Assembly: GCF_900167395.1 (NCBI RefSeq)
Contig: NZ_FUWK01000044.1
Span: forward strand, 1 to 21,481
DNA: 21,481 nt
Source of the DNA: Nitrosomonas europaea
GTDB taxonomy: Bacteria > Pseudomonadota > Gammaproteobacteria > Burkholderiales > Nitrosomonadaceae
Direction: 5' to 3'
Numbering within the stretch: the stretch's first letter is position 1; every line of letters begins with the position of its first letter. Position numbers and translations under genes: made by a program. This document shows positions 2,234 through 6,625 of this stretch, one piece after another. The notes below the pieces were generated by a model. That model saw nothing but the letters and a program-made list of their open reading frames with translations. It was not told the origin of the DNA and made no database searches.

Positions 2234-3139
2234 ATGTCGAACGAACAGCTTGCAGATCTAACCCAGCCACAACGCGACCGGCTCGCGTTTGTGGAGTTGC
2301 GCGTGCGCTTCATCGGGGAGATACGCCGTCAGGACTTGGTTACGCGGTTTGGCATCCAGTCCGCCGCCGCATCCAGGGATCTGGCGCTGTACAAAGAGTT
2401 GGCCCCGGGCAACATCGATTACGACTCCAAGGGCAAGTCCTACGTCCTGGGGCCGGACTTCCGGCCCGTCTTCGACTTCCCCCCGGAGCGGGTGCTGTCG
2501 TGGCTAACCCAGGGCTTTGGCGATGGCGAGCCGATGCGGCTCAAGGCGTGGGTGGCCAGCGAGAGCCCGTCACGGCTCACGCATCCGGATCTGGATGTGC
2601 TTGCGAGCGTGACCCGTGCGATTCACCAGGAGTGTCCGCTCGGCATCGAGTACCACTCCATCTCCAGTGGCCGCACCGAGCGGGAAATCGTCCCGTTTGC
2701 GCTGATCGACAACGGCCTGCGCTGGCATGTGCGCGCCTTCGACCGGAAGTCCCAAGAGTTCCGAGATTTCGTCATCACTCGGATCAAGCGCCCGGTCCTT
2801 ATAAGGGATGCAGAGGTGCAGTCCCATGAGCGCAGTGATCAGGACATCCAATGGACCCGGATCGTGGAGCTGGAGATGGTGCCGCACCCGGACCAGCCCC
2901 GTCCTGAAATTACGGAGATGGACTACGGCATGGTTCGCGGGTCACTGCGGATGAAGCTGCGTGCTGCCACCGCCGGATACATCTTGCGGCAGTGGAGCGT
3001 GGACTGCTCTCCGGACCACAGTCTGCGCGGTTACGAATTCAGGCTCTGGCTGAAAGATCACCTGGCGCTGTACGGCGTCAAGAACGCTGTGTTGGCGCCG
3101 GGCTACCGCTCGCCTGACCAAAATAAGGGAGAGCAATAA
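2234..3139 (+). CDS. WYL-domain transcriptional regulator (wHTH-WYL-C-terminal extension; BrxR/CapW-like)
   Basis: The N-terminal wHTH reads RDRLAFVELRVRFIGEIRRQDLVTRFGIQSAAASRDLALYKE. The central WYL-type strand reads PFALIDNGLRWHVRAFD. At about 300 aa it matches the size of BrxR/CapW-class regulators. It is divergent from the CBASS pair and 1 nt upstream of the next gene. Confidence 0.85.
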   Translation: MSNEQLADLTQPQRDRLAFVELRVRFIGEIRRQDLVTRFGIQSAAASRDLALYKELAPGNIDYDSKGKSYVLGPDFRPVFDFPPERVLSWLTQGFGDGEPMRLKAWVASESPSRLTHPDLDVLASVTRAIHQECPLGIEYHSISSGRTEREIVPFALIDNGLRWHVRAFDRKSQEFRDFVITRIKRPVLIRDAEVQSHERSDQDIQWTRIVELEMVPHPDQPRPEITEMDYGMVRGSLRMKLRAATAGYILRQWSVDCSPDHSLRGYEFRLWLKDHLALYGVKNAVLAPGYRSPDQNKGEQ

Positions 3140-3140
3140 C

Positions 3141-5219
3141 GTGGCCTACGACCCAAAACGCGCGCTGGAACTGCTCCGGATTGGCTCCGGACGCGCCAAT
3201 GCCACTTTCCGCGACGGCCAAGAAGATGCCATTCGTCACATCGTCGAAGGCAAAGGCCGCTTGCTGGTCGTGCAGAAGACCGGGTGGGGTAAGAGCTTTG
3301 TCTACTTCATCGCGACCAAGTTGCTGAGGGAAGCTGGGGCCGGCCCTGCGTTACTGATCTCGCCGCTGCTGGCGCTGATGCGAAACCAGATCGCAGCAGC
3401 AGAGCGGATGGGGGTTCGCGCCGCCACCATCAACTCCGACAACATGGATGACTGGACGGTAGTCGAGGGCAAGCTGGCCAAGGGGGAGATCGACATCCTC
3501 TTGATCTCGCCGGAGCGCCTGGCGAACGAGCGCTTCCGGACGCAGGTTCTGGCCGGCATCGCTGCACAGATTTCGATGCTGGTCATCGACGAGGCGCATT
3601 GCATTTCCGACTGGGGTCACGACTTCCGCCCTCACTATCGCCTGTTGGAGCGGATTGTCAAAACGCTGCCGCCAAACCTGCGCTTGCTCGCCACCACGGC
3701 AACAGCGAATAACCGCGTGATGGAGGACCTTGCTGCTGTGCTCGGTCCGAAGCTGGACGTCTCGCGTGGCGACTTGAATCGGACTTCGCTTTCACTGCAA
3801 ACGATCCGCCTGCCCAGCCAGGCCGAGCGCCTTGCCTGGCTGGCAGAGCAACTGGCCACGCTGCAGGGCCACGGCATCATCTACACGCTGACGGTTCGTG
3901 ATGCCAATCAAGTGGCTCAATGGTTGAAGACCCAAGGCTTCAACGTGGAAGCCTATACGGGTGAAACCGGCGATCGCCGAGAACAGCTTGAGCAGGCGCT
4001 GCTCAACAACCAAGTCAAAGCGCTGGTTGCCACAACAGCGCTAGGCATGGGGTACGACAAGCCGGATCTGGCGTTTGTCATCCACTACCAAATGCCGGGA
4101 TCGGTCGTCGCCTACTACCAGCAGGTTGGTCGCGCGGGACGCGCACTGGACTCCGCCTATGGAGTACTCCTCAGCGGTCAGGAAGAGTCTGACATCACTG
4201 ACTGGTTTATCCGGAGTGCCTTCCCGACCCGGCAAGAAGTTGCCGACGTCCTGGGAGCGCTTGAAGACGAGCCCAATGGGCTGTCTGTCCCTGAGCTGCT
4301 GAGCCGAGTCAATCTGAGCAAAGGACGTGTCGACAAGACGATTGCACTGCTTTCCCTCGAAGCGCCGGCGCCCATCGCCAAGCAAGGCAGCAAGTGGCAG
4401 CTCACGGCGGCAACGCTGAGTGAAGCGTTCTGGGATCGAGCGGAACGCCTCACCGCACTACGGCGAGACGAGCACCAGCAGATGCAGGACTACGTGAGCC
4501 TGCCGTTTGGTGAGCACATGGGCTTTTTGATTGGCGCGCTCGACGGCGATCCAAGTGTTGTCGCAGAACCAGCCTTACCGCCATTGCCTGCAACCGTGGA
4601 TGCCGAGCTGGTCAAAGCCGCCGTCGAATTTCTTCGTCGAACCAGCTTGCCCATCGAGCCACGCAAAAAATGGCCCGATGGTGGAATGCCCCAGTATGGC
4701 GTCAAGGGATTCATCGCACCTGCCCATCAGGCCGAATCCGGCAAGGCGCTATGCGTCTGGGGCGATGCCGGTTGGGGCGGCTTGGTTCGACAGGGTAAGT
4801 ACCACGACGGCCACTTTTCCGATGACCTCGTTGCTGCGTGCGTGAAGATGATTCAAGAGTGGAATCCGCAGCCGAGCCCGACCTGGGTGACCTGCGTTCC
4901 TTCGCTTCGGCATCCCGAATTGGTGCCGAATTTCGCGCAACGCTTGGCTGCTGCGCTGGGTCTGCCGTTTCATATGGTCATCGCAAAAACAGACGCAAGG
5001 CCCGAACAGAAAACGATGGCAAACAGTACACAACAGGCGCGCAACATTGATGGTTCGCTCGCACTCAACGGCCAGCCCATACCTCCCGGACCAGTCCTCT
5101 TGGTGGATGATATGGTCGACTCCCGCTGGACGCTAACGGTGTCTGCTTGGCTGCTGCGCAAGAATGGTAGTGGAGAGGTATGGCCGATGGCCCTTTCACA
5201 GACGGGGCATGACGAATGA
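3141..5219 (+). CDS. RecQ-family SF2 DNA helicase fused to a C-terminal ComF/GntX-like phosphoribosyltransferase domain
   Basis: GTG start. RecQ motifs present: QKTGWGKS (Walker A), [49 protein letters not shown]. The C-terminal ~200 aa carry [13 protein letters not shown]..., [23 protein letters not shown] and [12 protein letters not shown], a PRTase/ComFC-type acidic PRPP-loop pattern. Confidence 0.88.
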
Positions 5220-6625
5220 CGTCAGTCCTCTCACCCAACACCCAGGCGATCCTGCTGCTGACTGCGCCGCTCATCGCCGGACGAGGCACTGCGTCATCGG
5301 ATCTGCTCTCGCCAGGTGAATACAAACGTCTCGCGCGTCATTTGCGCGAGATTCAGCGTCAGCCTGCGGATCTGCTCTCGCCGGACGCCGCTGAGATCCT
5401 GCGTGCGTGCCAACCAGTGATTGACGAGGGCCGCCTGCAGAAATTGCTGGGGCGCGGATTCCTGCTGAGCCAAGTGATCGAGCGCTGGCAGGCACGCGCC
5501 ATCTGGGTCGTCAGCCGCGCCGACGCAGAGTATCCCCGCCGTCTGAAGGCCCGCTTGCGCGAAGACGCCCCTGCGGTGCTCTACGGCTGTGGCGACATGG
5601 CTTTGCTTGAAACCGGCGGGCTTGCCGTGGTCGGATCGCGCCATGTGGACGATGCCCTCATCGACTACACCATGACAGTTGGCCGGCTCGCTGCTCGGGC
5701 AGGTCGAACACTTGTCTCCGGTGGTGCCAAGGGCATCGATCAGGCGGCCATGCGTGGCGCCTTGGAGGCTGGAGGCAAGGTCTGTGGCGTTCTATCGGAT
5801 AGCCTGGAAAAGACCACCATGAACCGCGAGCACCGCAACCTGCTGCTCGATGGTCAACTGGTGCTGATTTCGCCCTACGACCCGAGTGCCGGCTTCAATG
5901 TCGGCCACGCCATGCAGCGGAACAAGCTGATCTATGCATTGGCAGACACCTCACTAGTGGTCAGCTCCGACCTCAACAAAGGCGGCACTTGGGCGGGCGC
6001 TGTCGAACAGCTCGACAAACTCAAGTTTGTCCCTGTCTTCATTCGATCGACGGGCGAGTCTTCCGCCGGATTGGATGGTTTACGAAAGAAAGGCGCACTT
6101 GCCTGGCCGAACCCGCAAGACGTGGATTCGTTCAAGGACGTGTTCAACGTAGCGATGCCGACTCCGACGGCATCCCCACAGGTTGGTTTTGCGCTGTTTT
6201 CAAACGAAGAACCAACGTCGGTTGACGCCAAGCCAACGGTGCCCGTGCCACCCGACACCGCGCCAGCGCCCCAGGCCGAAAGTGAGCCATCGGCACCGGT
6301 CGACGTTGTTTCCGATGCGCAGCCACCTGCACCAGCATTGGAAGAGCAGCCGTCAGTCACGCCAGAGGCCATACCGCCGATAGACGATGCCATGGAATCT
6401 GCTCAGCCGGAATCGAGCCCAGCCGAAGTGCTCTTCGCTGCCGTGCGCGCTGCGATTCAGCAACTCTTGAGCGCGCCGATGAAGGACGCCGACGTGGCGG
6501 CCGCGCTGGACGTTTCCAACGCGCAGGCCAAAGCGTGGTTGCAGCGCCTAGTCGACGAAGGCGTATTGGAAAAGCAAAAGAAGCCTGCGGGCTACATCGT
6601 CAAGCAAAAGCGGCTGTTCGAGTAA
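5216..6625 (+). CDS. DprA/Smf-like (SLOG-fold) protein with an N-terminal helical domain, a Pro/Glu-rich linker and a C-terminal winged helix
   Basis: DprA Rossmann core: YPRRLKA...[10 protein letters not shown]...LAVVGSRHV...[33 protein letters not shown]...ISPYDP...[12 protein letters not shown]...GGTWAGA. A low-complexity linker at about 6160-6420 is followed by a wHTH-like tail ([28 protein letters not shown]). The start overlaps the upstream stop as ATGA. Confidence 0.85.

Follow-up and report, generated by a model that had tools for sequence, protein, structure and literature searches.

Three genes are packed head to tail on the plus strand of the window (the whole 21,481-nt stretch of Nitrosomonas europaea DNA that was analysed): brxR at 2234–3139 (301 aa, ATG start), psyrT at 3141–5219 (692 aa, GTG start) and psyrA at 5216–6625 (469 aa, ATG start). 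A single base separates the brxR stop codon (TAA, 3137–3139) from the psyrT start, and the psyrT stop overlaps the psyrA start in the tetranucleotide ATGA (5216–5219). The psyrT start is preceded by a Shine–Dalgarno-like GGGAGAG (3127–3133) that lies within the 3′ end of brxR, and this junction (3127–3143) is kept in loci L082–L089 and persists even in L001, where only a 3′ remnant of brxR is left. The tight coupling of the three genes given in a preliminary description of this DNA is therefore borne out, its fold assignments (WYL, RecQ core, PRTase, DprA/SLOG and wHTH) are correct, and every motif it quoted for the second and third genes was found in place. The short distances between genes and the lack of terminator-like sites suggest that brxR, psyrT and psyrA are co-transcribed, probably together with the restriction–modification (R-M) genes that follow.

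The toxin gene psyrT (also rqlH) encodes a protein that the PADLOC PsyrT model matches almost from end to end (E 1e-281, 934 bits; aa 2–691 on profile positions 2–687 of 689). Its RecQ-family SF2 helicase core (aa 7–365, nt 3159–4235) contains the DEAD and Helicase_C domains, exceeds the cut-off of the RecQ_fam model TIGR00614 (226 bits) and matches RecQ structures in the PDB (4Q47, E 5e-52; 1OYW, E 4e-45); its motifs are QKTGWGKS at aa 45–52, a 15-residue stretch at aa 150–164 and a 10-residue stretch at aa 325–334. A weak wHTH-like match occupies aa 367–404 in the middle of the protein. The C-terminal region (aa about 481–692, nt 4581–5216) carries a ComF-like motif (nt 4998–5066), composed of RPEQKTM at aa 620–626 and a 12-residue element at aa 631–642, and a 12-residue PRPP-binding acidic loop at aa 653–664 (nt 5097–5132). 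The Pfam Pribosyltran model remains sub-threshold against psyrT (E 4e-3), and a profile built from 60 homologues of the region matches almost exclusively type I PRTase-fold proteins in the PDB, among them PRPP synthetase (4S2U, E 3.4e-5), HGPRT and PurF, all of which align on the PRPP loop. Residues D656, D657, S661, W663 and T664 are invariant among the homologues. At the sequence level, the loop profile supports the prediction that the C-terminal domain is a PRTase. In E. coli RqlH, the D663A and DIVD to EVME mutations abolish toxicity (PMC4670107).

The third gene, psyrA (rqlI), encodes a DprA-like antitoxin that is matched over its full length by the PADLOC PsyrA model (E 9e-143, 474 bits) and more weakly by the ShosA model (E 8e-25); in nearly every one of 80 related loci, PsyrT has PsyrA directly behind it. 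The DprA/SLOG Rossmann core (aa 91–298, nt 5486–6109) matches Pfam DNA_processg_A (E 4e-35) as well as SLOG cluster4, includes a 26-residue motif at aa 168–193, and finds DprA (4LJK, E 5e-12) and ShosA (9VZO, E 2.6e-4) among PDB structures. The Pro/Glu linker and C-terminal wHTH noted earlier for this protein are both present, as a Pro/Glu/Ala-rich segment (aa 311–405, nt 6146–6430) and a weak HTH match (aa 409–454, nt 6440–6577).

It might be expected from these domains that the genes form a housekeeping or competence-type DNA-processing operon unrelated to defence. The ComFA/ComFC/DprA machinery brings the same three domain types (SF2 helicase, ComF-type PRTase-like protein and DprA Rossmann core) together around ssDNA, and this analogy was noted in the RqlHI paper itself (PMC4670107). 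However, the helicase here is of the RecQ family rather than ComFA-like and is fused to the PRTase, and the third protein reaches only 87 bits against a DprA equivalog cut-off of 191 and matches PsyrA instead. The pair behaves as a toxin–antitoxin (TA) system, CBASS, R-M, McrBC or BREX genes are neighbours in every context examined, and the distribution is mosaic in a manner resembling horizontal transfer. A competence role is accordingly the most improbable of the explanations considered.

Since both PADLOC models are matched end to end, the second and third genes are identified as PsyrTA (RqlHI), a TA module of the abortive anti-phage type (Sberro 2013; Russell & Mulvey 2015; Millman 2022); this identity is one part of the reading, given in full below, that we hold with high confidence. 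The architecture of the pair is the same as that already published: a toxin of ∼690 aa in which a RecQ-like helicase forms the N-terminal part and a PRTase bearing the acidic PRPP loop the C-terminal part, followed by an overlapping gene for a DprA-like antitoxin that ends in an HTH. Two differences are apparent, in that the E. coli F11 pair is a free-standing two-gene operon whereas the pair here stands in an operon behind a BrxR-family repressor, and in that PsyrA has a longer linker (469 aa vs a 398-position profile). The view that the locus is an uncharacterised system, with no experimental work behind it, is not upheld: for the E. coli homologue, TA behaviour, physical interaction and the two-gene operon have been studied genetically, as have toxicity without the DprA-like partner RqlI, which neutralises it, and the helicase and PRTase point mutants K49A, D148A and D663A, which cover Walker A, DEAH and the PRTase loop (PMC4670107).

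The kinship with ShosTA-type pairs proposed earlier does hold. ShosTA likewise joins a PRTase-domain toxin to a DprA-like, ssDNA-binding antitoxin, shows type IV-like TA behaviour and produces a phenotype of DNA damage and filamentation (PMC11961720, PMC12961424), and the ShosA models are also matched by PsyrA here. ShosT, in contrast, has a HAD-type pyrophosphatase at its N-terminus where PsyrT has a RecQ helicase; psyrT gives no ShosT match, and psyrA is far closer to PsyrA than to ShosA.

The first gene is predicted to encode a BrxR-family wHTH–WYL–WCX transcriptional repressor, with approximate domains at aa 1–94 (wHTH), 121–186 (WYL; PF13280, E 1.6e-12) and 200–301 (C-terminal dimerisation/WCX), and its homologues share the WHD_BrxR, WYL and BrxR_CTD domains. 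It aligns with E. fergusonii BrxR (pEFER, 7QFZ) at E 1.2e-85 over aa 3–292 with 48 per cent identity, in agreement with the BrxR/CapW-like regulator that had been proposed, and has the same domain order as Acinetobacter BrxR (7T8K). Conserved residues include R16, equivalent to the DNA-contact R17 of BrxR_Efer, together with S142/S144/S145, K172 and R183 and the ssDNA-contact motif RWHVR (aa 163–167); the WYL pocket is otherwise kept, with one residue altered (H174 of BrxR_Efer to S173). Known BrxR acts as a repressor by binding repeats at PbrxR, and here too the gene opens, at the 5′ end, a locus of several defence systems and shares a strand with its cargo, although the first cargo is PsyrTA and then type I R-M rather than BREX.

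A promoter/leader block (2025–2233, plus strand) conserved with the upstream regions of other brxR genes contains a sigma-70-like promoter (TGGACA-17-TATACT, 2155–2183), and the BrxR operator is presumed to lie somewhere within it. An operator-type inverted repeat of at least 8 nt was not found at 2100–2233, in which respect the region differs from BrxR loci with an R-BOX-like repeat. The block is common to brxR in L086 and L088, which have unrelated left neighbours, and in L081, where BrxR has no PsyrTA behind it; it moves with brxR and not with psyrTA.

On the other side of the block, across a 261-bp intergenic region, a CBASS pair (patatin effector 1972–1007, cyclase 992–249) diverges from brxR. 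WYL repressors of the CapW type are described as CBASS-associated (PMC11662680), so the first gene could be a functional CapW that mainly controls this CBASS operon, its adjacency to psyrTA being incidental. CapW and the protein here belong to one repressor family and have the RWHVR motif in common. Control of the CBASS operon as the main role is very unlikely: the CapW structure (7TB5) is a more distant homologue (E 7e-30) than BrxR, a minus-strand promoter-like site was not found in the intergenic region, and other loci with all three genes have no CBASS upstream. Moreover, the brxR block loses its homology to L086 at about 2025, the point at which a divergent gene of 78 aa is cut short, and for this reason the CBASS block is regarded as a separate mosaic piece.

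The distribution of the genes bears on whether they make up one integrated, previously uncharacterised system, with the WYL protein as dedicated sensor for helicase-armed PRTase/DprA effectors. Many loci preserve the one-base junction, in which the psyrT ribosome-binding site lies within brxR, PsyrT is adjacent to relatives of this BrxR in 39 loci, including all 21 of the closest, and a literature search gave no paper describing brxR–psyrT–psyrA. To that extent the proposed three-gene arrangement stands, and the 21 closest relatives are also compatible with some functional co-adaptation. A BrxR/CapW-like gene is, however, absent from 79 of 80 species-level PsyrT loci and present only as a remnant in the other, so that none has an intact BrxR. 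The trio recurs in 31 of 75 assessable metagenomic loci, within one BrxR sublineage; PsyrTA does not in general have BrxR as a partner. In addition, in 45 loci the same BrxR subfamily, about 90 per cent identical, stands in front of BREX or other cargo, PsyrTA works in E. coli as an operon of two genes, and in L001 PsyrTA is intact and brxR has decayed to a 3′ stub. The identities of PsyrT and PsyrA do not track that of BrxR, a pattern that points to a recombination mosaic. The WYL gene is thus no dedicated third component, and an integrated trio is improbable.

The best reading is instead that PsyrTA is two-gene cargo inside a BrxR-controlled defence operon. Where the trio occurs, psyrTA lies precisely between brxR and a brxR-headed system (BREX type 3, BREX type 1 or type I R-M), and its insertion junctions coincide exactly with the stop codon of brxR and the start of brxF. 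BrxF–BrxC–PglXI stands directly behind BrxR in 17 loci and behind PsyrA in 7, a 181-aa gene followed by BrxA–BrxB–BrxC stands directly behind BrxR in 7 and behind PsyrA in 3, and hsdM follows psyrA in 15. Taken whole, that a BrxR-family repressor is followed directly by inserted psyrTA at the head of a larger operon, here type I R-M, is highly probable. As both PsyrTA and BrxR are already known, the locus is a familiar defence pair behind a familiar type of repressor in a slightly new arrangement.

There is reason to think, from the identity to a characterised repressor and the conserved DNA-contact Arg, that a BrxR dimer would bind near its own promoter (about 2155–2233) and hold brxR–psyrT–psyrA at a low basal level. 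CapW, at present the best guide to the inducing signal, contacts ssDNA via residues that are conserved in BrxR (PMC11662680) and present here. By analogy with CapW, in which alone this ligand is demonstrated, ssDNA from phage replication or DNA damage may bind the WYL domain at the RWHVR pocket, with its His to Ser change, releasing BrxR and raising expression. PsyrA would bind and neutralise PsyrT, as demonstrated for RqlI and RqlH; unrestrained toxin could then lead to SOS induction, filamentation and growth arrest, aborting infection. The PRTase domain is the demonstrated source of toxicity in RqlH, where SOS induction and filamentation depend on it (PMC4670107), and the RecQ-type 3′–5′ helicase probably places it onto DNA.

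Defence against phage by PsyrTA has been reported (Millman et al., bioRxiv 10.1101/2022.05.11.491447), but no protection was detectable in the native E. coli host NILS69, and the defence may therefore depend on context. That result, the standing of PsyrTA as a bona fide TA pair and its place at the front of defence loci that are mobile and mosaic would also suit a module that mainly stabilises the BrxR-headed island against loss, with no phage defence of its own. Given the reported defence, and that the related ShosTA defends via antitoxin instability, such a purely addictive role is unlikely, if less so than the other alternatives; addiction and defence are not mutually exclusive.

The defence-island setting described earlier is confirmed by flanking CBASS (cyclase and patatin), type I R-M and McrBC-like genes. 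Under the cargo reading, BrxR repression probably extends to the downstream R-M genes, of which the first behind psyrA is an hsdM paralogue (6691–8180, plus strand; PADLOC MTase_I, Pfam HsdM_N and N6_Mtase). A terminator-like site was not found on the plus strand between 6625 and 6691, and the paralogue may share the transcription unit that BrxR heads. It is itself frameshifted at about 7989–7995, where a tblastn alignment with the L082 homologue, intact at 498 aa, is divided over frames 1 and 3.

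The three plus-strand genes of the preliminary description were recovered as open reading frames with the junctions reported, and all motifs quoted for them are found in the sequence: brxR at 2234–3139 (+, 301 aa), psyrT at 3141–5219 (+, 692 aa, with a GTG start) and psyrA at 5216–6625 (+, 469 aa). A single base separates the brxR stop codon (TAA, 3137–3139) from the GTG of psyrT, a Shine–Dalgarno-like GGGAGAG lies within the 3′ end of brxR, and the psyrT stop and psyrA start overlap in the sequence ATGA (5216–5219). Both downstream products match PADLOC profiles almost end to end, the first to PsyrT (PDLC03928; E 1e-281, 934 bits, aa 2–691 on profile positions 2–687 of 689) and the second to PsyrA (PDLC03927; E 9e-143, 474 bits, aa 2–463 on positions 2–397 of 398). 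The DprA-like gene sits directly 3′ of the toxin gene and overlaps it, a synteny kept in nearly all of 80 loci carrying PsyrT relatives. By sequence, the pair is assigned to PsyrTA, also named RqlHI, for whose homologues toxicity, neutralisation and phage protection are known.

The biology of those homologues has been described in some depth. In E. coli F11 the RqlH and RqlI genes form one operon, expression of RqlH alone leads to an SOS response and filamentation, and RqlI binds and neutralises RqlH (Russell and Mulvey 2015, PMC4670107). The toxicity belongs to the phosphoribosyltransferase (PRTase) domain, as it is abolished by deletion of aa 509–690, by D663A and by the change of DIVD to EVME; the helicase mutants K49A and D148A were assayed as well, and the analogy with ComF and DprA was already raised by the same authors (PMC4670107). 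PsyrTA has also been placed among phage-protective toxin–antitoxin systems, and a psyrA deletion was unobtainable (Millman et al., bioRxiv 10.1101/2022.05.11.491447). The experiments that had been proposed for this locus, including toxicity assays and PRTase and helicase mutants, have therefore largely been published for homologues, and the earlier view of the genes as an uncharacterised system gives way to full-length matches with a published one. Genes annotated here as "RecQ family helicase", "DprA" and "WYL domain protein" are to be read as PsyrT, PsyrA and BrxR.

The N-terminus of PsyrT is a RecQ-family SF2 helicase core (NCBIfam TIGR00614 recQ_fam, 226 bits against a cut-off of 219.8), with Walker A, DEAH and motif VI at aa 45–52, 150–164 and 325–334, and aa 7–365 match solved RecQ structures (4Q47, E 5e-52; 1OYW, E 4e-45). 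Canonical RecQ proteins such as E. coli RecQ carry a four-cysteine zinc-binding subdomain. PsyrT appears to lack this subdomain, since aa 155–537 hold no cysteine and the RecQ match stops at about aa 335–365. A weak MarR-like winged-helix match was seen at aa 367–404. The C-terminal PRTase domain is recognised by Pfam only below cut-off (E 4e-3), and because of this weak match a profile was built from 60 PsyrT homologues in related loci (aa 481–692) and searched against the PDB. Nearly all of its 44 matches, and every one with E < 1, are enzymes of the type I PRTase fold; PRPP synthetase is the best (E 3.4e-5), HGPRT and PurF are also among them, and all align on the PRPP-binding loop, while D656 and D657 are invariant in the 60-sequence alignment. 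A single-sequence structure model of this region had a mean pLDDT of 41.5, too low for a fold search. At the level of the family, the profile matches and the invariant acidic pair argue for a C-terminal PRTase with an acidic PRPP-binding loop.

The PsyrA protein contains a DprA core (Pfam DNA_processg_A, E 4e-35) and weak helix-turn-helix matches towards its C-terminus (aa 409–454). Its likeness to ShosA is at the superfamily level only: PADLOC ShosA models score far below that of PsyrA (E 8e-25 and 2e-6), and in the PDB ShosA (9VZO, E 2.6e-4) falls behind DprA itself (4LJK, E 5e-12). For ShosTA, whose structure has been solved, the toxin ShosT combines a pyrophosphatase with a PRTase activity, the antitoxin ShosA is an ssDNA-binding protein, and protection rests on the instability of the antitoxin (PMC11961720, PMC12961424). 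Whereas ShosT joins its PRTase to an N-terminal HAD-type pyrophosphatase and has no helicase, the toxin here begins with RecQ and has no PADLOC match to ShosT. A role in competence alongside ComFA and ComFC, which a DprA-like fold and a PRTase might bring to mind, is judged unlikely given that PsyrA scores well below the equivalog cut-offs for bona fide DprA (TIGR00732, 87 bits against 191; PRK10736, 65 against 495), that no ComF-family NCBIfam match was found at E ≤ 0.01, and that the surrounding genes are defence genes.

The first gene of the trio finds its closest structural counterpart in BrxR of E. fergusonii pEFER, or BrxR_Efer (PDB 7QFZ; E 1.2e-85 over aa 3–292, 48 per cent identity over 290 aa), with CapW (E 7e-30) and Acinetobacter BrxR (E 1.8e-22) more distant, and its close homologues carry WHD_BrxR, WYL and BrxR_CTD domains. 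BrxR_Efer represses as a dimer by binding to repeats at its promoter, an activity for which R17 is essential (Picton et al.); the corresponding DNA-contact arginine is R16 in the window protein. In CapW, the WYL domain binds ssDNA through an RWHVR motif and Ser and Arg residues that are conserved in BrxR, and this binding releases the protein from dsDNA (PMC11662680). Those residues, with the RWHVR motif, a Ser-rich RT loop and an Arg on the 3-10 helix as elements of the WYL ligand pocket, are all present here (S142, S144 and S145, RWHVR at aa 163–167, K172 and R183), with one pocket position altered, from His174 of BrxR_Efer to Ser173. The gene heads a defence island in which PsyrTA, type I restriction–modification (R-M) and McrBC-like genes follow downstream, and its relatives head BREX types 1 and 3, helicase or nuclease genes and other cargo. 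Domain architecture, contact residue and position at the head of an island together place it in the BrxR family of wHTH–WYL–WCX proteins, for which repression has been shown in BrxR_Efer, and ssDNA release in CapW only (Picton et al.; PMC11662680).

A promoter-like TGGACA-17-TATACT lies upstream of brxR at 2155–2183. Within 2100–2233 there is no inverted repeat of at least 8 nt and no convincing direct repeat, arms of 4–5 bp being all that could be picked out by eye; an obvious operator repeat is likewise absent from many BrxR homologues (Picton et al.). A neighbouring CBASS operon might suggest that the regulator serves it in the manner of CapW. This is judged unlikely, as the match to BrxR (E 1e-85) is much nearer than that to CapW (E 7e-30) and linkage to CBASS is not conserved: a CBASS neighbour occurs in the window alone, outside the brxR block, whose edge is at about 2025. 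ShosTA, CapW and the ComF/DprA machinery are relatives or analogues of the proteins considered here and not the family to which they belong.

The preliminary description had also taken the three genes as one operon under a ligand-sensing WYL factor. A scan taking one genome per species gave more than 600 PsyrT relatives, and in the 80 loci kept the reading frames upstream of psyrT were heterogeneous. When 66 of these upstream frames were scanned with Pfam no family occurred in more than three, and WYL was absent from the 25 families listed, so it can be present in at most two of the 66. When all 6,410 open-reading-frame segments of the 80 loci were searched by phmmer, with BrxR of the window as query, the only match was in L001, the nearest relative, a Pseudomonadota metagenome-assembled genome whose PsyrT is 97 per cent identical. 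There the match is a decayed 3′ stub of brxR (5742–5996; the last ~240 bp, broken by indels) directly 5′ of an intact psyrTA, and the psyrT ribosome-binding site is retained within the stub. Since this stub is the sole match and psyrTA remains intact beside it, BrxR on this sequence evidence is not a general component of PsyrTA and is dispensable even in this lineage. A general PsyrTA partnership with WYL proteins is ruled out by tblastn as well as by the Pfam and phmmer surveys.

Viewed from the side of the regulator, the association is recurrent. In the neighbourhoods of close BrxR homologues, four loci (L082–L085) have brxR–psyrT–psyrA followed by type I R-M genes, as in the window, four (L086–L089) have the same trio followed by BREX genes, and in L081 BrxR adjoins Wadjet genes with no PsyrTA. 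Among 80 further metagenome loci at 88–99 per cent identity, PsyrT abuts BrxR in 31, including every one of the 21 closest relatives (at least 91 per cent identity), and 44 carry other cargo, the remaining 5 being too short to tell; the resulting trio share of 41 per cent is taken as an upper estimate for the BrxR subfamily because ranking by closeness biases the sample. The question of whether the trio is conserved thus has a divided answer: it recurs within one BrxR subfamily with variable defence cargo, and it is absent as a general arrangement of PsyrTA. The subfamily is unusually conserved, with BrxR proteins 84–91 per cent identical across Burkholderia, Pseudomonas, Alcaligenes, Methylocaldum, Acidithiobacillus, Ectothiorhodospira and others while the cargo downstream changes, which suggests either that it has recently spread far by horizontal transfer or that the regulator is strongly constrained.

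The nature of this association can be read from the first gene that follows BrxR or PsyrA, assigned by clustering neighbour genes and annotating representatives. BrxF, followed by BrxC and PglXI of BREX type 3, stands directly after BrxR in 17 loci and directly after PsyrA in 7; a 181-aa gene followed by BrxA, BrxB and BrxC of BREX type 1 comes after BrxR in 7 and after PsyrA in 3; BrxA is directly after PsyrA in 2 loci and directly after BrxR in none; and HsdM of type I R-M follows PsyrA in 15, the window included, and BrxR directly in none. In DNA alignments the breakpoints fall within the final few codons of brxR on one side and at the start codon of brxF on the other, the identities of PsyrT (82–99 per cent) and PsyrA (72–99 per cent) vary independently of that of BrxR, and loci without PsyrTA share the promoter block that precedes brxR. 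In the window this block ends at about 2025, where a divergent 78-aa gene of the L086 type is cut to some 14–21 codons beside the CBASS block. The exchange of cargo, the precise breakpoints, the independent identities and the brxR-linked promoter block show, at the level of sequence comparison, that psyrTA entered the operon as a cargo of two genes, between brxR and the system that brxR heads.

A plasmid origin was considered and rejected: a megablast of 2000–6700 against PLSDB returned only a 78 per cent identical psyrT, which carries the annotation RecQ family helicase, on a replicon of Sinorhizobium meliloti. A search of the window for RNA elements and an integration site gave neither an Rfam family nor a tRNA. 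We found no paper pairing BrxR or WYL proteins with PsyrTA, DprA or RecQ–PRTase. BrxR homologues at the head of mixed defence islands, including toxin–antitoxin systems, are an established pattern, and with effector pair and regulator both from known families the trio carries little weight as a discovery. What it adds is the recurrence of PsyrTA as an in-operon insert, with brxR on one side and BREX or type I R-M genes on the other, and a naturally occurring example in which an inducible repressor, probably an ssDNA sensor, controls a toxic TA-type defence.

The best-supported model of how such a locus would work draws on the properties of the homologues. BrxR would repress its own promoter and so keep down brxR–psyrTA and probably the R-M genes as well, no terminator-like site having been found on the plus strand after psyrA. 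By analogy with CapW, ssDNA arising from infection or DNA damage would release BrxR. PsyrT would be neutralised through binding by PsyrA, as shown for RqlHI, and loss of this balance would free a PRTase-dependent genotoxic activity and arrest the cell, the toxicity being that shown for RqlH; the RecQ-type helicase might serve to target PsyrT to DNA. Rival readings weighed against this model, and considered less likely, were a single integrated system of three components, PsyrTA as an addiction module, CapW-like control of the divergent CBASS genes, and a part in competence or repair. A more ambitious reading, which we regard as quite improbable, is that BrxR and PsyrTA are coupled in this sublineage through a shared ssDNA signal, with PsyrTA acting by positive feedback to amplify whichever system, BREX or R-M, lies downstream. 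The ssDNA sensed by the BrxR WYL domain would derepress the operon and would also titrate PsyrA to free PsyrT, whose helicase and genotoxic PRTase would make more ssDNA and switch on BREX or R-M. If true, such feedback would explain why psyrTA always lies exactly between brxR and the cargo, and why it is found in all of the closest BrxR relatives. The locus is in any case a convenient one in which to look for a response of BrxR to ssDNA and for a moderating effect of regulation on the toxicity of PsyrT.

Several flanking genes deserve mention. On the minus strand, the CBASS CD-NTase frame (249–992, 247 aa) covers only positions 1–223 of a 297-position PADLOC cyclase profile, and its C-terminus may have been lost through truncation or a frameshift; the patatin effector (1007–1972) looks full length. 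At the seam between the CBASS and brxR blocks lies a perfect 8+8 palindrome, GCCGATGA/TCATCGGC (1993–2008), adjoined by a 21-codon frame (2012–2074, minus strand; MQNFTELHLKP...). The initial ~14 codons of this frame are what is left of the divergent 78-aa gene, intact in L086–L089 and with no Pfam match on record for its product.

Downstream stand two hsdM paralogues in tandem, ~52 per cent identical in pairwise comparison, and the first of them (6691–8180) has a frameshift at about 7989–7995 relative to an intact 498-aa homologue in L082. The tandem hsdM–hsdM–hsdS–hsdR layout is kept in L082–L085, and the short frame between the hsdM genes differs, that of L082 (161 aa) having no homologue in the window. 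A Schlafen/AlbA_2 and HATPase_c_4 gene (9887–11923) between the second hsdM and hsdS is absent in L082–L084 and gives weak PADLOC matches to pAgo-associated models. Further on, three overlapping genes (16118–20495) encode a McrB-like AAA_5 ATPase of 740 aa, the first ~450 of which have no family match, a McrC-like protein and a DUF4917 protein. The last of these has a PADLOC match to candidate system PDC-S21, and the three genes may form one unit.

Three clusters of recurrent small proteins encoded directly after BrxR or PsyrA have no Pfam or PADLOC match: the 181-aa protein (L143, 8933–9478, and nine other loci), always 5′ of BrxA–BrxB–BrxC, one of ~110 aa (L131, 5642–5974; 9 loci) and one of ~106 aa (L099, 12537–12857; 4 loci). 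Their genes may be accessory to BrxR-headed loci and have escaped recognition as such.
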